Sequence record: OR352938.1
DNA: 64,000 nt
DNA from: Escherichia phage AV108
Direction: 5' to 3' (one strand)
Shown here: positions 1 to 50,032 of the stretch, one piece after another
How the letters are laid out: each line of letters begins with the position of its first letter
How positions within the stretch are numbered: position 1 is the first letter of the stretch
Made by a program: the position numbers and the translations under genes
Notes under the pieces: generated by a model
Databases searched by the model: none
What the model was told of the DNA's origin: nothing
The model's input: only the letters and a program-made list of their open reading frames with translations

Positions 1-3314
<3,314 letters not shown>

Positions 3315-3345
3315 CGATAATGCATAAAAAGATGAGGAAATTCTA

Positions 3346-5343
3346 ATGACTCTATTATCACCGGGTTTCGAAACGAAAGAAACTACTCTCTCCACTACCA
3401 TTGTGCAATCTGCGACTGGTCGCGCGGCGCTGGTAGGTAAATTTCAATGGGGTCCAGCTTTCCAGATTGTTCAAGTAACTAATGAAGTTGAATTAGTTAA
3501 TAAATTTGGTCAGCCGGATAATAACACCGCAGACTATTTCATGAGCGGGGCTAACTTCCTCCAGTATGGCAATGACCTGCGTGTTGTTCGTGTACTCAAT
3601 AAAGAAAAAGCAAAAAACGCAACTGTCCTAGCTGGTAACGTCGAGTTTGAAATCACAAACGAAGGTTCAAACTACAAAGTAGGCGATTCGATTAATGTAA
3701 AATACAACCGTCAGGAAGTTGAAACCGCTGGCAAAGTAACCAAAGTGGATGCCGAAGGTAAAATTAAAGGTATTTTCATCCCAACCGGGAAAATCATTGC
3801 TCTGGCTAAGTCCATTGGTGTTTACCCTAATCTGGATGGGTTTACCGCAGAAATCACTTCCGGCACTGGTAACTCAACTGCGGCGATCACCATTTCAAAA
3901 ATTGTTACCGATTCCGGTCTTCTCTTAACGGATCTGGAAACTTCCCGTGCCAATATCACAAATCAAACTTTCTTGACTAAACTCAAGAAGTATGATATGC
4001 CAGCAGTAAGCGCGATCTATGCTGGTGAGATCGGGGACTCTCTGGAAGTCGAGATCCTAGCACGTAGTGCGTTTAAGAACACCGCACCGGATCTGACAAT
4101 GTATCCTTACGGCGGTACTCGCACCGCAGCACGCAACCTGATTCCATATGCACCGCAGAATGATAATCAATATGCGTTTATTGTTCGTCGTGATGGTGTT
4201 GTGGTAGAATCCTATGTACTGTCTACTCTGAAAGGGGATAAAGACGTATACGGCAATTCTATCTATATGGACGACTTCTTTGCTCGTGGTTCTAGCCAGT
4301 ACATCTATGCAACCGCTCAGGGCTGGGTAGATGGTTTCAGTGGTATTATCTCTCTTGCTGGTGGTGTGTCTGCTAACGAAGCAACGATCGGTGGAGTTGG
4401 TGCTGATCCGTTCATCGGTGCGATGATGCAAGGTTGGGATCTGTTTGCTGAACGAGAATCTATTCACGTAAACCTGTTGATCGCTGGTGCATGTGCTGGC
4501 GAAGGCGATGCGTTCTCTACCGTACAGAAACATGCTGTTTCCATCGGTGATGAGCGTCAGGATTGCTTAGTAATGGTTTCTCCGCCGCGTAGCACTGTTG
4601 TTAATATTCCGGTGACTACTGCAATTGATAACCTGATTGCATGGCGCGAAGGTTCAGGAAACTATAATGAAAACAACATGAACATTAATACCACTTACGC
4701 GGTTATTGATGGTAACTACAAATATCAGTATGACAAATACAACGACGTAAACCGTTGGGTTCCGTTGGCTGCTGATATTGCTGGTTTGTGCGCTCGTACT
4801 GATGCTGTATCCCAGCCGTGGATGAGTCCGGCAGGTTATAACCGTGGTCAGATCATGAACGTGGTTAAACTGGCAATTGAGCCTCGCAAGGCGCACCGCG
4901 ATCGTCTGTATCAGGCCGCAATTAACCCGGTGATCGGTGCTGGTGGTGAAGGGTTTATCCTGATGGGTGATAAAACCGCTACGACTGTTCCTAGCCCGTT
5001 TGACCGCATTAACGTTCGTCGTCTGTTTAACATGCTGAAAAAGAATATCGGCGATTCAAGCAAATACAAACTGTTTGAAAACAATGATAACTTTACTCGC
5101 GCTTCCTTCCGTATGGAGGTTTCGCAATATCTCAGCACGATTCGCTCTCTGGGTGGCATTTATGACTTCCGAGTACAATGCGACACCACGAATAACACGC
5201 CGGATGTAATTGATCGTAACGAATTTGTTGCTAGTATGTTCATCAAACCAGCAAAATCGATCAACTATATCATGCTCAATTTCACTGCTGTTGCAACTGG
5301 TTCTGATTTTGACGAAATTATCGGTCCAGCTAACCAGGCATAA
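3346..5343 (+). CDS. 18: tail sheath protein (T4 gp18-like)
   Basis: 665-aa ORF, RBS GAGGAAA; size and position between 17 and 19 match T4 gp18 (659 aa). Confidence 0.9.
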   Translation: MTLLSPGFETKETTLSTTIVQSATGRAALVGKFQWGPAFQIVQVTNEVELVNKFGQPDNNTADYFMSGANFLQYGNDLRVVRVLNKEKAKNATVLAGNVEFEITNEGSNYKVGDSINVKYNRQEVETAGKVTKVDAEGKIKGIFIPTGKIIALAKSIGVYPNLDGFTAEITSGTGNSTAAITISKIVTDSGLLLTDLETSRANITNQTFLTKLKKYDMPAVSAIYAGEIGDSLEVEILARSAFKNTAPDLTMYPYGGTRTAARNLIPYAPQNDNQYAFIVRRDGVVVESYVLSTLKGDKDVYGNSIYMDDFFARGSSQYIYATAQGWVDGFSGIISLAGGVSANEATIGGVGADPFIGAMMQGWDLFAERESIHVNLLIAGACAGEGDAFSTVQKHAVSIGDERQDCLVMVSPPRSTVVNIPVTTAIDNLIAWREGSGNYNENNMNINTTYAVIDGNYKYQYDKYNDVNRWVPLAADIAGLCARTDAVSQPWMSPAGYNRGQIMNVVKLAIEPRKAHRDRLYQAAINPVIGAGGEGFILMGDKTATTVPSPFDRINVRRLFNMLKKNIGDSSKYKLFENNDNFTRASFRMEVSQYLSTIRSLGGIYDFRVQCDTTNNTPDVIDRNEFVASMFIKPAKSINYIMLNFTAVATGSDFDEIIGPANQA

Positions 5344-5377
5344 TCAGTAAATTAGCATAGATTAAAAGTTAAATCAA

Positions 5378-5396
5378 GCGGGGAGAAAATCCCCGC
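5378..5396 (+). other. intercistronic stem-loop GCGGGGAGAAAATCCCCGC
   Basis: Perfect 7-bp GC stem between genes 18 and 19; same module recurs at 5924 and, inverted, at 50002. Confidence 0.5.
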
Positions 5397-5416
5397 TCTA
5401 TTAAGGAATATCAATT

Positions 5417-5911
5417 ATGGCACTCGATTTGAATGATATTACACGCGGTTTCGAGTCTGGCGATTTTGCTCGTCCTAACCTGTTTGAAGTTGAGATCCCG
5501 TATCTGGGGCAAAACTTTAAGCTGATGTGTAAGGCTGCGACTGTCCCGGCTGCTACCGTAGAAAAAATTGCTATAGGCTATCAAAACCGTAAAATTAACA
5601 TCGCTGGCGACCGTGTATACGACGACTGGACCATCACTGTATTCAACGATGACGCACACAAGATCCGTGATGCTATCGTTGCATGGAGCGATCAGACACA
5701 CGGCACTGGTTCGGCGATCACGGGTGCAACTCCTGCACAATATAAGAAACAAGCTATTGTTCGTCAACTTAACCGTAACACCGAATCAACTAGCGAAAAA
5801 ACATTGTACGGTATTTTCCCGACCAACGTTGGTGAAGTAACCCTCGATTGGGAACAAAACAACGAAGTTGAAACGTTTGAAGTTACTTTTGCTATCGATT
5901 GGGTAGAATAA
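5417..5911 (+). CDS. 19: tail tube protein (T4 gp19-like)
   Basis: 164-aa ORF immediately after sheath gene; size and synteny match T4 gp19. Confidence 0.88.
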   Translation: MALDLNDITRGFESGDFARPNLFEVEIPYLGQNFKLMCKAATVPAATVEKIAIGYQNRKINIAGDRVYDDWTITVFNDDAHKIRDAIVAWSDQTHGTGSAITGATPAQYKKQAIVRQLNRNTESTSEKTLYGIFPTNVGEVTLDWEQNNEVETFEVTFAIDWVE

Positions 5912-5923
5912 ATATATTATCAT

Positions 5924-5942
5924 GCGGGGAGAAGTTCCCCGC
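5924..5942 (+). other. intercistronic stem-loop GCGGGGAGAAGTTCCCCGC
   Basis: Near-identical hairpin to 5378-5396, between genes 19 and 20. Confidence 0.5.
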
Positions 5943-5969
5943 CTAATTTCTCCCAATTCGAGGTGAATA

Positions 5970-7535
5970 ATGTTTAGTAGATTAAAAATGCTTGCGCGTT
6001 GGGCTGATTTTGACAACGACAAATACGAAGAACAAATTAAAGATAAAGCAGAGTCTATCGCCGCACCTAAAAACAATGATGGTGCTACGGAAGTAGAAAT
6101 TAATGATAATTTACCTGCTAGCGCGTGGAACTCTCTTACCCAGCAATTTTACAGCACCGACCAGAAAATCAGCACAACTAAGCAATTAGTTAACACATAT
6201 CGCGGTTTGATGAATAACCATGAAGTCGAAAACGCTGTACAAAATATCGTTAACGATGCGATTGTATTTGAAGAAGGTCATGAAGTTGTTTCATTAAATC
6301 TTGAGGCGACTGGCTTTAGTGAATCTGTAAAAGAGCGCATTCATGAAGAATTTAAAGATCTTTTAAACACTATCCAGTTTGATAGGCGCGGTCAGGATAT
6401 GTTCCGTCGCTGGTATGTCGATTCGCGTATTTTCTTCCATAAAATCATCGGCAAAAATCCAAAAGATGGTATCGTAGAATTACGCCAGCTTGACCCACGT
6501 AATCTTGAATACGTTCGAGAGATCATTACAGAAGACACACCGGAAGGTAAAATTTATAAAGCAACGAAAGAATATTTCATTTACACTGTAGGCAATAGCT
6601 CTTATTGCGCAGGTGGTCAAGTATTCTCTCCTAATAGTCGCGTTAAAATCCCGCGTAGTGCTATTACATACGCTCACAGCGGCTTGATGGATTGCGATGA
6701 TAAATATATCATTGGTTATTTGCATCGGGCTGTTAAGCCAGCAAACCAGCTTAAATTGTTGGAAGACGCAATGGTCGTTTATCGTATCACGCGTGCACCG
6801 GAACGCCGAGTGTTCTTTATTGATACCGGAAACATGAACAACCGCAAGGCTGCACAGCACATGAACTCAGTGGCACAGTCTTTTAAAAACCGCGTTGTTT
6901 ATGATGCATCGACTGGTAAACTTAAAAACCAGCAAGCAAATCTATCAATGACAGAGGACTACTGGTTACAGCGTCGAGATGGTAAAGCAATCACCGACGT
7001 TACTACTTTACCCGGTGCATCCGGTATGAGTGATATCGATGATATTCGCTACTTTAACCGTAAATTGTATGAAGCGTTGCGTGTACCATTGTCACGCAGT
7101 AATCTCTCCGATGCTAATATGGTGATCGGTGGTGACGGTTCAGAAATTACTCGCGATGAGTTGGAATTTTCGAAATTCATTAGAACTCTGCAATCACAGT
7201 TTTCGGAAGTATTGCGCGATCCTCTGAAATATAATCTGATTCTCAAAAATGTAATTACGGAAGACGATTGGGATCGTGAAATAAATAATATCAAGGTGGT
7301 TTTCCATCGGGACTCTTATTATACAGAAGTTAAAGACGCGGAAATTTTAGAACGTCGAATCGGTCTAATCGAACGTATTACACCTTACATTGGTAAATAT
7401 TTCTCTAACCAGACAGTGATGCGTGACATTCTGAAATATACCGATGACCAGATGGACACCGAGAAGAAACAGATCGAAGAAGAAGCGAACGATCCGCGCT
7501 TTAAACAAACTCCCGATGAAATAGAGGATTTTTAA
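5970..7535 (+). CDS. 20: portal vertex protein (T4 gp20-like)
   Basis: 521-aa ORF; size and position match T4 gp20 (524 aa). Confidence 0.9.
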   Translation: MFSRLKMLARWADFDNDKYEEQIKDKAESIAAPKNNDGATEVEINDNLPASAWNSLTQQFYSTDQKISTTKQLVNTYRGLMNNHEVENAVQNIVNDAIVFEEGHEVVSLNLEATGFSESVKERIHEEFKDLLNTIQFDRRGQDMFRRWYVDSRIFFHKIIGKNPKDGIVELRQLDPRNLEYVREIITEDTPEGKIYKATKEYFIYTVGNSSYCAGGQVFSPNSRVKIPRSAITYAHSGLMDCDDKYIIGYLHRAVKPANQLKLLEDAMVVYRITRAPERRVFFIDTGNMNNRKAAQHMNSVAQSFKNRVVYDASTGKLKNQQANLSMTEDYWLQRRDGKAITDVTTLPGASGMSDIDDIRYFNRKLYEALRVPLSRSNLSDANMVIGGDGSEITRDELEFSKFIRTLQSQFSEVLRDPLKYNLILKNVITEDDWDREINNIKVVFHRDSYYTEVKDAEILERRIGLIERITPYIGKYFSNQTVMRDILKYTDDQMDTEKKQIEEEANDPRFKQTPDEIEDF

Positions 7536-20068: not shown

Positions 20069-20305
20069 ATGATTAGTTTTAAACGATTCTTAGCCGAAGC
20101 CGTTATTGATGGTTTCATGAATAAAATCTATTCTTGTAATACTATGGAAGGTTTGGACGAGCTTGAAAAATATTATGAAAAGCGCAAGAAAGAGACCGAT
20201 CTCAAACCGTCGGATGATATCTCTATTCGTGATGCAATAGCAGGTCGGAGAAAACAGTTGGAGAGTGAAAACAAGCCGGGGGAGGAGCCGGAAGAGGATT
20301 TTTAA
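20069..20305 (+). CDS. uvsW.1: UvsW.1-like small protein
   Basis: 78-aa ORF directly after uvsW, as in T4. Confidence 0.65.
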   Translation: MISFKRFLAEAVIDGFMNKIYSCNTMEGLDELEKYYEKRKKETDLKPSDDISIRDAIAGRRKQLESENKPGEEPEEDF

Positions 20306-26161: not shown

Positions 26162-27220
26162 ATGAAAATTCAAATTTTGGATGATGCTAAAGACGCCTTT
26201 AAAAAAGGCGTCAAAGCGTCTGCTGGTTTTACTCAAAAACAAGACAAGTCAACTTTAACCGCTCAATTTCCATCTGAACGAGCTAGCGGCAATGATTCAT
26301 CTGGTATATACATAAATGACCTTTATAATAACGGTTTGTTGTTTACTGCCTATGATTATAAAAGTCGTGTTACCGACTCTCTACGAGATTTCAGAAATAA
26401 AGGAAACACGATCAAGGGGTTTGGTCTATCTATTTCTAATGGTGGTAAAGCAGAATATACGAGTAATAGGGGAGTTGGGTTTGATCGTGAGGCCGTTGCT
26501 AATATTCTACTTCCTCGTAGTCAATCAGATGTTGATGCGGTAAGTCACAAGTTTAATGATGTTGGTGAATCTCTCGTTACGCGTGGCGGTGGTACTATTT
26601 CTGGCGCATTATCTACTATGGCATCGACCGCAGTATTTGGTGGGTTGGAAAGTTTGACGGGTGGTTATCTTGCGGATAAAAACGAGCAAATCTATAATAC
26701 CGCTCGTAGCATGTATGCTGGGGCAGATCCTAGAACTAAAAACTATGTTTGGAACTTAACCCCACGCAGTATTGAAGACTTGCGAAATATCCTGATTATC
26801 TATGAGACGTTTGTAGAGTTATCTTATGGGTCTAGTGGTATTTCCAGTACCGCAAAACAATTAAAAGCGGAAGTTGACGCATGGTATAAAAAGACAATTC
26901 TTTCTAAAACGGTTCCAGAAGGTGCTGATACAACGGGTACTGTATTTGAGGGAATAACTGACTTTTTGACAAACGTAACCACTGTATCGAATCCTACTAT
27001 ATGGATGGTATCAAACTTTGGAAAACGTTCTGAATATGAGGGAAGAAGTGATGTTTTCGGACCAGCGCAAATTTCTAACGTAAGGCTTGATAAATCTCCG
27101 GATGGTAAATTTGGTGGACTTGCAATATCTCCTAATTTACCGAGCACTTTTGTTTTGGAAGTATCGTTCAGGGAGATTCTTACTCTTTCCCGTGGTACTG
27201 TATTTGGGAGTCAATTATAA
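26162..27220 (+). CDS. 48: baseplate tail tube cap (T4 gp48-like)
   Basis: 352-aa ORF; synteny. Confidence 0.85.
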   Translation: MKIQILDDAKDAFKKGVKASAGFTQKQDKSTLTAQFPSERASGNDSSGIYINDLYNNGLLFTAYDYKSRVTDSLRDFRNKGNTIKGFGLSISNGGKAEYTSNRGVGFDREAVANILLPRSQSDVDAVSHKFNDVGESLVTRGGGTISGALSTMASTAVFGGLESLTGGYLADKNEQIYNTARSMYAGADPRTKNYVWNLTPRSIEDLRNILIIYETFVELSYGSSGISSTAKQLKAEVDAWYKKTILSKTVPEGADTTGTVFEGITDFLTNVTTVSNPTIWMVSNFGKRSEYEGRSDVFGPAQISNVRLDKSPDGKFGGLAISPNLPSTFVLEVSFREILTLSRGTVFGSQL

Positions 27221-28153: not shown

Positions 28154-28176
28154 AAAGGGGGATTATACCCCCTTTT
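28154..28176. terminator. bidirectional terminator hairpin AAAGGGGG-ATTATA-CCCCCTTT
   Basis: 8-bp stem with T-run, between convergent gene 54 and lipoprotein gene. Confidence 0.7.
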
Positions 28177-28177
28177 A

Positions 28178-28690
28178 TTATTTTAATAACTGTTCGCATT
28201 GTTTACGTAGCTTATAACGGTATTCTTTAGACCGCAGCATTTTAACTTTTTCGTAGTCTCCGTTATCATACGCACTATTAAGATCATCTTGATATGCTGC
28301 TTCCGTCCCGATTACACATACTCCAAATTGTCTACGACGGTCGGCATCTTCCATTGCTTTACGGTTCATTTCTTCAATTGAATTTTCACGACCATAATAA
28401 TATTCGTAAATGCGTTTCTTCTCTGCTTCTTTATCTGCCTTAATCTTTGCGATCTGTTCTGCTGATTCCTGTTGACGACCTAAACGCTGTAATGAGGCGT
28501 CTTTCTTTTCAAGGTAGTCAATCACGCAATCTTCAACGCTATTAAATGGAAAACGTGACTCTTTCTGCCATCGTTCACATGACCGTACAAACTCGTGTGT
28601 ATTCTTAGATGCCAGTGCCAGATCATGCACAGCACACCCATTAAGCATAGCAACCAAAGCCGCAAGACCAATCAGTTTAATCATTTTCAT
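28178..28690 (-). CDS. putative lipoprotein
   Basis: 170 aa; N-terminal signal peptide with lipobox (LIGLAALVAMLNGC); start overlaps upstream ART stop (ATGA). Confidence 0.6.
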   Translation of the reverse strand: MKMIKLIGLAALVAMLNGCAVHDLALASKNTHEFVRSCERWQKESRFPFNSVEDCVIDYLEKKDASLQRLGRQQESAEQIAKIKADKEAEKKRIYEYYYGRENSIEEMNRKAMEDADRRRQFGVCVIGTEAAYQDDLNSAYDNGDYEKVKMLRSKEYRYKLRKQCEQLLK

Positions 28691-29511
28691 TTAGTCACCT
28701 CACCGAAAATTGTAAATTGTCTACGATTCTCATCGCCGAAAGATTCTACTACGTCGTTTACCTTGACGCAAGTCCCTCGCGGTAAAATTACTTCACATTC
28801 GCAAGGGTTCCATGCAATTGACCCAACAACAAAACCTTTATGATCTTTTACGTCAATTACCCATGATACATTACAAGAATGTTGCATCTTTCCGGTCATT
28901 GATTCATATCGATTCTCACAATAAAGGCTAGTGCTGTTTGATAGCCATCCTCCAAAGATGATCGGTGTCATGCTGGTAGATACAAAGTTTTTAAAGGTAA
29001 ACTCCTTATCTTCAATGATACGCTCTATTGTCTGAATGTCAAGATGTTGACCTCGATAAAGAGTACCGTTTAACTTTTCGGTTTTATCCATGACACAATC
29101 CATCAAATCAACAATCTCTGATATCTCATCGGTCATGTCTTCTTCCCCTAAGAGAGCACCATTTACCCATTCGTATTGTTCAGACACATAATCACAGATT
29201 GCATTATATTCTGCTGGGGTTATGTTGTTATGTTTGTAATGTTTGAATACATTATCTCCAAAGTCTTCGGAGTGTACTTCATACATCACATTAATGATTT
29301 TCTTGACAAATCCATAATCTTGTGTCTCGCGCTCAAGGAAGCGGATAACCTTCACATAATCATCAAAGTTAATCTGATCGCTGATCATCTCAGTGATCAT
29401 GTAACCATTAATCCCCTCAATGTCATATGTTTCGATGTAATTATCCATACGTTCCATCATTGATTCGCGTGATTCTTCTGAAAGACGAAAATCCTGTAAT
29501 TTCTTGAACAT
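28687..29511 (-). CDS. ADP-ribosyltransferase, Alt/Mod-like (R-S-E type)
   Basis: 274 aa; LYRG...FVSTS...PCECEVILPRG matches the Alt C-terminal catalytic core (YRG, STS, E-x-E). Confidence 0.72.
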   Translation of the reverse strand: MFKKLQDFRLSEESRESMMERMDNYIETYDIEGINGYMITEMISDQINFDDYVKVIRFLERETQDYGFVKKIINVMYEVHSEDFGDNVFKHYKHNNITPAEYNAICDYVSEQYEWVNGALLGEEDMTDEISEIVDLMDCVMDKTEKLNGTLYRGQHLDIQTIERIIEDKEFTFKNFVSTSMTPIIFGGWLSNSTSLYCENRYESMTGKMQHSCNVSWVIDVKDHKGFVVGSIAWNPCECEVILPRGTCVKVNDVVESFGDENRRQFTIFGEVTK

Positions 29512-29525
29512 TTTAAACCTCCCAT

Positions 29526-29563
29526 ATAACAGAAAACGGGGCTAGTATAAAACTAGTCCCCGT
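29526..29563 (-). terminator. rho-independent terminator after alt
   Basis: 11-bp stem ACGGGGCTAGT / ACTAGTCCCCGT; minus-strand RNA followed by a U-rich tract. Confidence 0.7.
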
Positions 29564-29589
29564 TTGAGTCAACCATTATTTCTTAAAAA

Positions 29590-31641
29590 TTACATTTTAA
29601 ATTTATCTGGCATTGCGTCTACAGATACCAGATCAGCGATAAGCTGACGTAGAGTTGCCTTATCTGCTTTCTTACGTTCGGTTTTAGCTTCGCTAATGAA
29701 GCTGGAGAAAGACAGGTCAGAAGCAGGTTTAATAACACCTTCACGGATGAATGCATCACCGTCCGCGATCATTTCGCCAGATTCTTGTAATGCTGCCAGT
29801 TCATTTTTGTTCATAATATGTGCCTCAATGTAATAAGTTTCTTGTGAATCCGTTGATGCCGTAGCACGAGTTACCGTATCAAAGGATAACACAACACCGC
29901 GAGGAAGTAAAATCTCGCATTCTTTGTAAGCAAATGCTTTGTTACCTACTGGCAAGACAGGGATGTTTTCCGCGCCAGCAATGGAGAAAGCAACATTAGC
30001 GCCACCTTCACCGCGAGAGCCAGCCATAGAATCAACACCAGCAACGGCACTAGCCACGTTTGCATTCCAGCCGCCAAAAATGTTAGGTGCAAGGGAAGTG
30101 CTCACATAGTTTTTAAAGTAAAACGCTTTTTGCTTACGTGCAGTTTCCCACATTTGCGACCGGAAGTCCATACCACGATACAGAATAGTACCCGGATCAA
30201 GTTTAACGCCATAGTTGGAGAAGGCATTATCCAGTGCATCGCACATCTTGACCAATTCTTCTGGATCTGCGATGCCTTCAAACTCTTCCAGCTTACGATC
30301 AGTTAGGAAGTTGTTCATATTGATGTATGCTGCATCGGCATATTCGCTCAACACAAAACCTTCCGCGCCTGGCAGATCAAGATCAATATCTGCCATCATT
30401 TCACCCATGTTACTAGCAATTGCTTCAAACATACCGGAAGCAACATTACGTAGGGCATCGGTTTTAATCTGGGTGATATGACTACGCAGCATTTCAGCTT
30501 TTACATCTGCTGGCATAGACTGGTCTACTCGATCCATTGCTAGGGCGGTGATCTTGTTTTCGAATACTTCCTCGCTCATGATTTCTTTTAAGCGTTTGAT
30601 TGATGCTGCGATAACTTCCGCAGACAACGGATCATATTGATCCTGAACTTTTACCAGTTCGCTTACTGCGTATTTTGCATCGGCTTCGCTTTCAAAAATA
30701 GTACGCATGAAACCATAGCGAGTGATAATATCACTTGTCCAGTCATTCAGAGAACGGGCGGTTGAACGTTCTAAGGCTTGACGGTCAATCAGAGTATTAA
30801 ACTGTTTCTTAGGTTCTGCTTCGGTGATATCTTCTTCCGGTTTAAGATTAATTTTTTCTGGATGATTCACATAGTCGCTGTTATAGGTCGCTTGAGTTTT
30901 CAGCATTTCTTCTTTAGTCAAACGAGATTTAGCCGCTACGCGTTGTTCCGCTTCCGCGTTTCGTTCTTCTTCTGACACAAGACTAGCCGCATACGCTTCA
31001 TCTTTAGTCAGAGATTCACCAGTAGCCTTAGATACCCAGCGATCACCTAAATCACTTTCTACTTTAGTGAACAAGGAATCATCAAGTTTAATCCCTTTAA
31101 TCTTATCAATCGCCATACCGCGACGCTTGACAACAACTAAAGCGATCTTTTTGCTGGTCATTACTTCCTGCTGGAATACTTCAAACTTCGGTGTACGACG
31201 CACCAAACGCTCTATAACGCGCTTAACCAGTTCGGTCTTACCTTTCATGCGGGATACGTTAAAACGGAACATAACAGCGTCTAGTTGCGCTTTACGGGCT
31301 GTTTCCATAACCACATCAAAAGCACTTGACATAACTGCAATCGGGTTATCGCCTAGACCATTTTTAAGCTGTACAATACGACCGCTTTTGTTCATTTCGC
31401 ACAGTACAACATGTGCGGTCTTGTCACCCAGACGAATGATTTTAGGTGTTTTGTTGGTGAAGTTACAAAGACGGACAATCACATCTTTATCGCGTGTCTG
31501 TACTGCAAAAAGCTGTTTAGGATTCTGCTTAGGCTTTAAGCACTGTACCGGAGCAATACTACCAAAGTTTTCTTCCTCTTCCGTCAACAGCCATTTCTCG
31601 AAAGATTCAATCATTAGATCGTCGATTTCTAAGTTAAACAT
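29590..31641 (-). CDS. alt: Alt ADP-ribosyltransferase (injected internal head protein)
   Basis: 683 aa (T4 Alt 682); C-terminal ILYRG...YVSTS...YKECEILLPRG catalytic motifs. Confidence 0.85.
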   Translation of the reverse strand: MFNLEIDDLMIESFEKWLLTEEEENFGSIAPVQCLKPKQNPKQLFAVQTRDKDVIVRLCNFTNKTPKIIRLGDKTAHVVLCEMNKSGRIVQLKNGLGDNPIAVMSSAFDVVMETARKAQLDAVMFRFNVSRMKGKTELVKRVIERLVRRTPKFEVFQQEVMTSKKIALVVVKRRGMAIDKIKGIKLDDSLFTKVESDLGDRWVSKATGESLTKDEAYAASLVSEEERNAEAEQRVAAKSRLTKEEMLKTQATYNSDYVNHPEKINLKPEEDITEAEPKKQFNTLIDRQALERSTARSLNDWTSDIITRYGFMRTIFESEADAKYAVSELVKVQDQYDPLSAEVIAASIKRLKEIMSEEVFENKITALAMDRVDQSMPADVKAEMLRSHITQIKTDALRNVASGMFEAIASNMGEMMADIDLDLPGAEGFVLSEYADAAYINMNNFLTDRKLEEFEGIADPEELVKMCDALDNAFSNYGVKLDPGTILYRGMDFRSQMWETARKQKAFYFKNYVSTSLAPNIFGGWNANVASAVAGVDSMAGSRGEGGANVAFSIAGAENIPVLPVGNKAFAYKECEILLPRGVVLSFDTVTRATASTDSQETYYIEAHIMNKNELAALQESGEMIADGDAFIREGVIKPASDLSFSSFISEAKTERKKADKATLRQLIADLVSVDAMPDKFKM

Positions 31642-32204: not shown

Positions 32205-32234
32205 ATTATAGGGGATCACCGATCCCCCTGTCAA
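32205..32234 (-). promoter_or_regulatory. sigma70-like early promoter with palindromic spacer (PeSL-type)
   Basis: TTGACA - GGGGGATCGGTGATCCCC - TATAAT on minus strand; spacer is an inverted repeat with two GATC. Confidence 0.65.
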
Positions 32235-32241
32235 CAATTTT

Positions 32242-32760
32242 TTAGTTATTTTTTAATTGCTCATCTTGCAATAGGGCAATCACATGCTGGCGATGTTCTT
32301 CCGATTGAGGCACACCGAAAAAGTTTGTTTTGTAGAAATACTCTAATCGGTCTTCTCGTGTGCTCTCTTCCATCATGATCGCGGGTAGTCCGAGATTTCG
32401 GAAACGTCGCTTTTCTGCTGGCGTAAAATCACTGTAATACAACATAGAATCATCATTACAAGCAATGCTAAACTCATCCTTCATAAAGGAGAATATTGCG
32501 TTTAAACGCTGTTTACCGTCCACGATTTCGATCTCATAGCGAGAGCCATCATCAATCTTAGCCATTGCGATAGCACCAACCGGAAAATCATTAATCAGGT
32601 TTTCGATAAACATACGTTTGTTTTCGGTGTCCCATACTAAAGGACGCTGATAATCTGGGTTCATGTTGATATAGCCATCTTCTAACCATGCATCATAAAC
32701 AGAGATGACAAAGTTTTTAGTATTGGTATAGTAACGGCGTTTAGGCGTTAAACGGTTCAT
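32242..32760 (-). CDS. DUF262 / ParB-like nucleotide-binding domain protein
   Basis: 172 aa from ATG 32760 (AGGAG RBS); PDYQRPLVW and IVDGKQRLNAIF match the DUF262 (GmrS-like) signature. Confidence 0.6.
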   Translation of the reverse strand: MNRLTPKRRYYTNTKNFVISVYDAWLEDGYINMNPDYQRPLVWDTENKRMFIENLINDFPVGAIAMAKIDDGSRYEIEIVDGKQRLNAIFSFMKDEFSIACNDDSMLYYSDFTPAEKRRFRNLGLPAIMMEESTREDRLEYFYKTNFFGVPQSEEHRQHVIALLQDEQLKNN

Positions 32761-32761
32761 G

Positions 32762-33094
32762 TTATAGTCTCCTGAATGGATCATCACGTAAATCAATATC
32801 TTTTAAGAACTCAACCCATGAATGCCGGATATTGTTCTTAATTCTCCAGATAAGCGCAGGGATTGAACGCTCTCCCATCTGGAAGTATGGATCATATGAT
32901 CCGTATGCCCAATATGCTACTACAATTCCACAATCAGCGCAATAGTATTCTATTTCACTTGCTGGCGACCAAAGTCCATCAATATGATCGGTGATCTTGC
33001 TTTCGATGTTATGGCTATGACAATCAGGGCAACGGATGCAATGACCTTGTTTATCGTAATTTGACGTTAGCGAATACTTAAACAATCTCATCAT
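32762..33094 (-). CDS. Cys-rich zinc-ribbon-like protein
   Basis: 110 aa with CIRCPDC...CADCG; start overlaps the MTase-like gene stop as ATGA. Confidence 0.55.
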   Translation of the reverse strand: MMRLFKYSLTSNYDKQGHCIRCPDCHSHNIESKITDHIDGLWSPASEIEYYCADCGIVVAYWAYGSYDPYFQMGERSIPALIWRIKNNIRHSWVEFLKDIDLRDDPFRRL

Positions 33095-34337: not shown

Positions 34338-34366
34338 ATTGTAGGGGAGTTATCCTCCCCTGTCAA
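34338..34366 (-). promoter_or_regulatory. sigma70-like early promoter with palindromic spacer (PeSL-type)
   Basis: TTGACA - GGGGAGGATAACTCCCC - TACAAT on minus strand. Confidence 0.6.
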
Positions 34367-34380
34367 CACTTTTTATAAAA

Positions 34381-34581: not shown

Positions 34582-34610
34582 ATTATAGGGGATCTCCCGA
34601 TCCCCGTCAA
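34582..34610 (-). promoter_or_regulatory. sigma70-like early promoter with palindromic spacer (PeSL-type)
   Basis: TTGACG - GGGATCGGGAGATCCCC - TATAAT on minus strand. Confidence 0.6.
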
Positions 34611-34624
34611 CAACTTTTTTAAAA

Positions 34625-37864: not shown

Positions 37865-37893
37865 ATTATAGGGGATCGGTGATCCCCTGTCAA
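37865..37893 (-). promoter_or_regulatory. sigma70-like early promoter with palindromic spacer (PeSL-type)
   Basis: TTGACA - GGGGATCACCGATCCCC - TATAAT on minus strand. Confidence 0.65.
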
Positions 37894-37898
37894 CAACT

Positions 37899-39009: not shown

Positions 39010-39038
39010 AGTATAGGGGATCACCGATCCCCTGTCAA
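39010..39038 (-). promoter_or_regulatory. sigma70-like early promoter with palindromic spacer (PeSL-type)
   Basis: TTGACA - GGGGATCGGTGATCCCC - TATACT on minus strand. Confidence 0.6.
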
Positions 39039-39050
39039 CAACTTTTTGAA

Positions 39051-49995: not shown

Positions 49996-50024
49996 ATTAT
50001 AGCGGGGATTTCTCCCCGCGTCAA
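49996..50024 (-). promoter_or_regulatory. sigma70-like early promoter with palindromic spacer (PeSL-type)
   Basis: TTGACG - CGGGGAGAAATCCCCGC - TATAAT on minus strand; spacer is the same hairpin module as after genes 18 and 19. Confidence 0.6.
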
Positions 50025-50032
50025 CACTTATT

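Follow-up and report, generated by a model that had tools for sequence, protein, structure and literature searches.

The stretch of DNA analysed here (the window) comprises 64,000 nucleotides of Escherichia phage AV108 (sequence record OR352938.1), and this report concerns three consecutive genes that the open reading frames (ORFs) of the window place on the minus strand: alt, a gene for a short Alt paralog of 274 amino acids (aa), hereafter called ART for ADP-ribosyltransferase, and a gene for a 170-aa lipoprotein-type protein. Genes 28, 29, 48 and 54 lie on the plus strand and converge on this block. The window phage is a Krischvirus, an RB49-like relative of T4, with 99% identity over the locus region to Escherichia phage vB_EcoM_PTE-Eco09 and 94–97% identity to RB49, Phi1, JSE and about 55 further Krischvirus genomes. 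The three genes are as follows.

29590–31641, minus strand: alt, encoding the full-length Alt-type ADP-ribosyltransferase of 683 aa (PHROG 802 over the full length, E 5e-179; Pfam PF03496 at aa 425–610).
28687–29511, minus strand: the ART gene, encoding the 274-aa short Alt paralog and equivalent to RB49p183 (Pfam PF03496, PHROG 15144).
28178–28690, minus strand: the lipoprotein gene, encoding the 170-aa protein and allelic to RB49p182 (PHROG 16112, E 1e-11).

The ART-lipoprotein pair corresponds to RB49p183/RB49p182 and is found in all 58 matching Krischvirus records. RB49p183 is annotated as 'ADP-ribosyltransferase; similar to C-terminal part of T4 Alt protein', while RB49p182 is annotated as hypothetical and its counterpart in phage W115 as 'putative lipoprotein'; both small genes are thus already annotated coding sequences in RB49 and its relatives, not newly found genes. 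The ORFs, motifs and coordinates given in an earlier note on this DNA, made from the sequence alone, are all present on the minus strand as it described them, and the reality of the ORFs beyond chance is supported by the Pfam and PHROG matches, the RB49 annotation, the exclusively synonymous changes in the ART gene and a cysteine pattern of the lipoprotein that is kept down to about 20% identity. The overlap of stop and start codons that it had reported is also there, as an ATGA at 28690–28687 in which the TGA of the ART gene (28689–28687) overlaps the ATG of the lipoprotein gene (28690–28688), and the same 4-nucleotide (nt) overlap is found in RB49.

The ART matches the Pfam family PF03496 ADPrib_exo_Tox at aa 82–266 (E 4e-16, 59.3 bits against a cut-off of 23.4), a family that alt matches at E 2e-9, and PHROG 15144 'ADP-ribosyltransferase' across its full length (E 3e-198). 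Its motifs LYRG (aa 151–154), FVSTS (aa 176–180) and PCECEVILPRG (aa 236–246) hold the residues of the R-S-E signature, encoded at these positions.

29053–29055, minus strand: codon of the catalytic Arg153 (in LYRG), invariant in two family alignments and aligned with the YRG arginine of solved ADP-ribosyltransferases.
28972–28980, minus strand: codons of S178-T179-S180, invariant in two family alignments.
28792–28800, minus strand: codons of E238-C239-E240 (the ExE motif), with E238 and E240 invariant and aligned with the (Q/E)xE of solved ADP-ribosyltransferases.

The family alignment extends down to 23–29% identity and includes the Alt catalytic domain, and the family profile matches the solved structures of C3, Vip2, iota Ia, CDTa, Certhrax, SpvB and Vis with the YRG and ExE motifs aligned. 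The AlphaFold (AF2) model of the ART (predicted local distance difference test score, pLDDT, 82; predicted template modelling score, pTM, 0.79) has C3bot2 as its best Foldseek match (E 6e-10), followed by Vis, CDTa, iota and Vip2; as modelled, the ART has a C3-like fold. The earlier suggestion of a second Alt-type ADP-ribosyltransferase with an R-S-E signature therefore stands on family and fold matches and on the invariance of R153, S178-T-S180 and E238/E240; careful alignment, in which the note had envisaged that catalytic residues might prove lost, kept all of them. E-x-E is the arginine-specific form of the motif in this class of enzymes, and the ART is predicted to be arginine-specific. 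The protein is 100% identical to RB49p183, and the two genes differ at 15 nucleotides, each of these changes being synonymous (15/15), which indicates strong purifying selection.

Profile–profile comparison with hhalign aligned ART residues 55–273 with Alt residues 384–610 (probability 99.9%, E 3e-33), identifying the ART as the Alt catalytic module, and the PHROG Alt profile aligns to ART residues 8–268. Residues 1 to about 54 are the sole part of the protein left without an aligned Alt counterpart in the profile–profile comparison, so that the 'unrelated N-terminal region' previously attributed to the paralog is not borne out. The C-terminal tail of Alt (...MPDKFKM), which longer Alt-like proteins retain, is absent from the ART, and with only Alt 384–610 represented the ART is a paralogous fragment and not an Alt ortholog; the Alt protein of the window is itself 99% identical to that of RB49. 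Compared with T4 Alt, the ART has a homologous catalytic module, with the YRG, STS and E-C-E motifs and the STSxxPxIFGGW loop in both proteins, but it is devoid of the first ~380 and the last ~70 residues and appears to have its own early promoter (see below). The residues preceding ExE also differ (AWNPCECE in the ART, AFAYKECE in Alt), for which reason the targets of the ART may differ from those of Alt.

The three ADP-ribosyltransferases of T4 are a classic model of host takeover. Krischvirus/RB49 encodes a single Mod-like ADP-ribosyltransferase (RB49p014, PHROG 832), which together with Alt and the short paralog gives the genus a total of three, as in T4; the composition of the RB49-type set (Alt, truncated Alt paralog and one Mod) differs from that of T4. 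The ART resembles T4 ModA and ModB in being small and in probably being synthesised in the host soon after infection instead of entering it with the DNA; by sequence, however, it belongs to the Alt branch, and its equivalence to the Mod enzymes is one that we infer at the level of function. With the toxins C3bot, Vis, Vip2, iota Ia, CDTa and Certhrax it shares the fold and the R-S-E signature, but identity to the C3 and binary toxins is only 15–20%, and the ART is a phage protein with an additional N-terminal helical region that would act inside the infected cell. In another T4-like lineage (L019, positions 2086–6599) alt is followed by a split Alt paralog, consisting of a 273-aa N-terminal domain protein and a 415-aa ADP-ribosyltransferase, then by a DUF5498 protein and gene 54, with no lipoprotein gene there; the duplication of Alt beside gene 54 thus recurs in different forms.

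The 170-aa protein begins with MKMIKLIGLAALVAMLNGC, in which the following feature was recognized.

28634–28690, minus strand: signal peptide (aa 1–18) and lipobox Cys19 (MLNG-C, with Ala at +2); the Cys is invariant in the family, and relatives have L-T-G-C.

When 1.84 billion representative proteins were searched exhaustively with a profile, ten representatives of this family came up, one of them a repeat artefact. Among sequenced phages the protein occurs in the 58 Krischvirus records only, and the relatives retrieved by the exhaustive search lie only on T4-like phage contigs; it is an orphan, phage-only family. Its members are 155–174 aa long, with a basic n-region, a hydrophobic core and the invariant Cys, and exactly four further Cys are present in the mature part of 18 of the 18 sequences in which the lipobox Cys can be placed. 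These four residues, invariant or nearly so in the family alignment, probably form two disulfides in the oxidising periplasm. The residue at +2 after the lipobox Cys is Ala or Ser in every member except a single one with Val, and in no member is it Asp; by the E. coli rule this predicts sorting to the outer membrane. When a strict lipobox rule was applied, 11 of the 13 other relatives, with L-T-G-C or similar, passed (one of the two others has a miscalled start and one lies outside both alignments checked), and the six sequences with the window-type signal peptide and its Asn at −2 (the window allele, four close relatives and a mosaic allele of phage Skers, described below) passed a relaxed rule only. 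Together with the invariant lipobox Cys and the four mature Cys, the passing relatives support the view that the downstream ORF encodes a secreted protein of lipoprotein type. The AF2 model is all-helical (pLDDT 81), and structure searches that included BFVD found no solved or viral predicted structure resembling it beyond its own family, as searches of Pfam, PHROG and NCBIfam found no matching family apart from its own PHROG 16112. The label 'outer membrane protein assembly factor', which one source gives to one relative, was supported by no search. The C-terminal residue (28178–28183, minus strand) is Lys in 16 of 19 family sequences and Asn in 3; in Lpp a C-terminal Lys is the point of linkage to peptidoglycan, a likeness that may be coincidence.

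We then considered the signals surrounding the pair. RB49 and phi1 possess promoter-early stem-loop (PeSL) elements, in which a stem-loop terminator is joined to a strong early promoter of sigma-70-like type (Arbiol et al. 2010, PMC2839356), both activities having been demonstrated experimentally on other copies than the one described here (PMC2839356). Scans of the locus gave the following features.

29538–29573, minus strand: PeSL-type element from the promoter scan, with −35 GTTGACT at 29573–29567 and −10 TATACT at 29549–29544.
28698–28701, minus strand: GAGG Shine-Dalgarno sequence of the lipoprotein gene, 8 nt upstream and within the last ART codons.
28154–28175, both strands: bidirectional terminator hairpin common to gene 54 (plus) and the lipoprotein gene (minus), from a two-strand terminator scan, with a fold of −14 kcal/mol.
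31703–31687 and 31682–31675, minus strand: terminator hairpin from the terminator scan and late-like promoter CATAAATA, respectively, upstream of alt.

The sequence between alt and the ART gene is GGTTGACTCAAACGGGGACTAGTTTTATACTAGCCCCGTTTTCTG. Its −35 and −10 boxes are separated by 17 nt, and the GGGGACTAG/CTAGCCCC stem-loop (29561–29538) overlaps the −10 box and is followed by the T-rich GTTTTCT, with a fold of −20.9 kcal/mol (z −2.6). This intergenic element thus has what defines a PeSL, a sigma-70-like −35/−10 pair with an overlapping G/C-rich stem-loop, and it shares with those of RB49 and phi1 the G-run/C-run stem, in the subclass whose stem lies over the −10 box; it differs from them in its position at the edge of a virion module, ahead of a conserved gene pair instead of an ORFan. 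The pattern GTTGAC-N17-19-TAnnnT is present in 24 copies in the window, against 1.9 expected by chance; 20 of the 24 fall on the minus strand, which carries the early genes, and in several copies the spacer contains a GGGG...CCCC hairpin. Cassettes of the form GTTGAC-(GGGG...CCCC hairpin)-TATAAT are located on the minus strand at 32205–32235, 34338–34367, 34582–34611, 37865–37894, 39010–39039 and 49996–50025. A motif scan found no late promoter TATAAATA near the ART gene; ahead of alt, CATAAATA is one mismatch away from the T4 late promoter TATAAATA and fits late expression of alt. With the PeSL upstream, no TATAAATA and a terminator downstream, the pair would form a discrete bicistronic unit, most likely an early one, and the product of such an early-type unit would be an ART synthesised during infection, as ModA and ModB are, and not packaged. 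On the basis of these signals, early expression of the ART-lipoprotein pair is what we infer.

The arrangement is conserved well beyond Krischvirus. Five divergent relatives of the lipoprotein, from metagenomic lineages and about 20–30% identical to the window protein, were looked up, and all are on T4-like contigs. Wherever the upstream gene is in view, the lipoprotein gene directly follows a gene for a 264–282-aa ADP-ribosyltransferase and is itself followed by the converging gene 54, and alt is found upstream of the pair wherever the contig reaches that far. Once one miscalled start was corrected, the distance from the ART stop to the lipoprotein start was −8 to +1 nt in all five lineages, so that the tight junction noticed previously is kept across divergent lineages. 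A GAGG or GAGA is present at the same place, in conserved C-terminal codons of the ART, in all lineages, and the PeSL promoter and hairpin recur in L008, L010 and L012 with differing stem sequences. Five lineages keep the pair and the L019 arrangement has no lipoprotein, which suggests that the ART-lipoprotein module is characteristic of one clade and stable there. The overlap by itself says little, because overlaps are common in this genome: of 90 pairs of adjacent genes counted over the first 50 kb of RB49, 31 overlap, and in 12 of these the overlap is 4 nt long. By this measure the overlap is not unusual in itself.

The two members of the pair evolve very differently. Between the window and RB49 the ART is 100% and Alt 99% identical, but the lipoprotein only 33% (BLASTP) to 37% (global alignment), a divergence about as large as that between lipoproteins of phages whose ARTs are 30–45% identical. 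Nucleotide identity to RB49 falls at about position 28660, within the signal-peptide codons. At least three allele classes of the lipoprotein exist in Krischvirus.

Window-type class: 5 records, at least 90% identity to the window protein.
JK32/Whisky-type class: 2 records, 46–48% identity to the window protein.
RB49-type class: 51 records, about 28–33% identity to the window protein.

The window-type and JK32-type proteins differ in the first ~100 mature residues and are nearly invariant in the C-terminal 45 residues, and metagenomes supply intermediate forms. The allele of phage Skers (L004, 3001–3489) is a mosaic, its mature part being of RB49 type and its signal peptide (…LVAMLNGC) of window type. 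The ratio of nonsynonymous to synonymous divergence (dN/dS) is 0.23 for the lipoprotein within the window class, compared with 0.05–0.13 for alt and 0 to 0.12 for the ART; the window-class lipoprotein is under purifying selection, which is looser than that on alt or the ART. In a genus that is otherwise about 95% identical, the lipoprotein is among the most variable genes. Co-variation of the lipoprotein with the C-terminal tail of gp54 was looked for and rejected, phage E26 combining a window-type lipoprotein with an RB49-type gp54.

Taken together, these data lead us to lean, with some reserve, towards the view that the locus is a self-contained two-gene early operon, in which a Mod-like, host-modifying ART is combined with an exported envelope lipoprotein that possibly serves exclusion. 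The PeSL cassette would stop transcription coming from alt and restart it with the host sigma-70 RNA polymerase, so that both genes would be transcribed after DNA injection. The ART, made in the newly infected cell, would ADP-ribosylate arginines of host proteins in the cytoplasm and thereby extend or complete the work begun by injected Alt, in a Mod-like role; more speculatively, it might substitute for the second Mod enzyme that is present in T4 and absent from RB49. Translation of the lipoprotein would begin from a separate Shine-Dalgarno sequence where the ART gene ends; after export the protein would receive its lipid at Cys19 and be held in the outer membrane, its helical, disulfide-bonded domain lying in the periplasm. 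There it would alter the envelope of the infected cell, most likely excluding or blunting other phages, and its alleles would be swapped between sister phages. The presumed early timing, the restriction to phages and the allelic replacement all point to a role in competition between phages (superinfection exclusion) or against host envelope factors, and the function in superinfection exclusion that the earlier note had suggested is plausible. The ART and the lipoprotein probably share timing and a transcript but not a mechanism, the most likely reason for the shared transcript being that both proteins are needed at the same time.

Exclusion by envelope proteins has well-known precedents: Llp of T5 and Cor of T1/phi80 are exclusion lipoproteins, and Spackle of T4 is a periplasmic, helical, disulfide-bonded exclusion protein. 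The lipoprotein described here resembles Llp and Cor in its predicted lipid anchor, Spackle in its modelled helices with conserved Cys, and all of them in its presumed early export; it differs from them in that no homology or fold match was detected and in that its alleles do not co-vary with the adhesin.

A bolder proposal, which we regard as speculative and on the whole doubtful, is that the lipoprotein is a new allele-specific determinant of exclusion or envelope defence in RB49-like phages, whose variable N-terminal two-thirds would be caught up in an arms race against rival phages or envelope factors of the host, while the invariant early ART is co-transcribed with it and the two secure the takeover of the cell from the inside and the outside.

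Several observations weigh against the early-operon reading and its extension to exclusion. Among the annotations of the RB49 record there is no early promoter here. The lipobox of the window allele (M-L-N-G-C) fails the strict rule on account of the Asn at −2. The dN/dS of 0.23 was obtained within one allele class, in which it does not point to positive selection. Genes 48 and 54 close by are likewise mosaic relative to RB49, for which reason part of the variability of the lipoprotein may be ordinary shuffling: gp48 (26162–27220, plus strand) differs from its RB49 counterpart at 79 of 352 residues, with a synonymous divergence (dS) of 1.67, and gp54 is 88% identical to that of RB49. Modular shuffling is typical of the RB49-type genus (PMC2839356). 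The unbroken adjacency of the ART and lipoprotein genes could still mean a functional link, and the simplest model of exclusion, in which the phage masks its own receptor, is argued against by the lack of co-variation between lipoprotein alleles and gp38. As an observation on its own, gene 48, which is one of the core baseplate genes, stands out as a sharp mosaic block, with alt and the ART gene 1.5 kb away at 99–100% identity.

That simplest model, in which the lipoprotein would act like Llp of T5 or Cor of T1/phi80 and exclude phages by masking the outer-membrane receptor that the phage itself uses, would explain an outer-membrane-type lipoprotein, presumably made early, that is strongly polymorphic between sister phages. 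We nevertheless think it improbable, as no similarity in sequence or fold to other viral proteins was found, the gene is not adjacent to receptor-binding or fibre genes, and the allele classes do not follow those of the gp38 adhesin. The window-type lipoprotein occurs with gp38 at 96% and at about 80–83% identity to that of RB49, and so does the RB49-type allele; a link to gp38 was rejected for this want of co-variation.

It is likewise unlikely that the ART is packaged in the head as Alt is, with an N-terminus that directs it to the prohead, and enters the cell together with the DNA. Its gene does lie beside alt and baseplate genes, and its N-terminus MFKKLQDFRLSE, with an L-x-E motif, can be likened to MKTYQEFIAE, the capsid targeting sequence of T4. 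The 12 N-terminal residues are not conserved in the family, however, the ART contains neither Alt residues 1–383 nor the ...MPDKFKM tail, and it is preceded by an early-type promoter with no TATAAATA near the gene.

A functional pair, in which the two proteins relate to each other like toxin and immunity protein, or in which the ART is guided or regulated by the lipoprotein, appears to us less probable again. It would account for the adjacency of the genes, which Krischvirus shares with five divergent lineages and in which the junction measures −8 to +1 nt, and the structural matches 8za7 and 6dre are ADP-ribosyltransferase toxins with the immunity gene directly downstream. But overlaps like theirs are common (31 of the 90 RB49 pairs counted above), the ART has no signal peptide whereas the lipoprotein is predicted to be exported, which would place them in different compartments, and the partners do not co-vary, the ART being 100% identical across phages whose lipoproteins are about 33–37% identical. 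The functional tie proposed in the earlier note thus finds no link to rest on, given the presumably different compartments and the disparity in conservation, and the toxin–immunity version was rejected for the lack of co-variation between the window and RB49.

A role of the lipoprotein in lysis, as an o-spanin or a lysis-inhibition factor, is very unlikely despite its predicted outer-membrane anchor and helical periplasmic domain and the M15 peptidase gene found a few genes upstream of alt in L006, since RB49 has holin t and rI elsewhere, no i-spanin is adjacent (the neighbours being the ART gene and gene 54), there is no C-terminal membrane segment, the promoter is of early type, the protein is a folded helical one of 150 aa unlike a short proline-rich o-spanin, and the spanin pair pseT.2/pseT.3 that RB49 already possesses led us to reject the o-spanin role.

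The early-operon reading that we favour is unsurprising for a T4-type accessory region and does not overturn current understanding. The new points of the analysis are the near-absolute constraint on the ART, the PeSL-driven bicistronic ART-lipoprotein operon, the conservation of this operon across divergent lineages and the hypervariability of the lipoprotein. The RB49-type set of ADP-ribosyltransferases amounts to a natural experiment that could separate the part of Alt needed for catalysis from the part needed for packaging. Krischvirus phages are used in phage therapy, and if the lipoprotein does govern exclusion, this would be relevant to the design of phage cocktails.

Two further ORFs of the window deserve mention. 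Upstream of alt, at 32242–32796 on the minus strand, lies a 184-aa ORF whose counterpart in W115 is annotated 'DUF262 domain protein'; DUF262 usually occurs in nucleases and defence proteins. At 20069–20305 on the plus strand, a 78-aa ORF starts with MISFKRFLAEA, which resembles the capsid targeting sequence of T4 internal proteins (MKTYQEFIAE), and its product may be an internal head protein.

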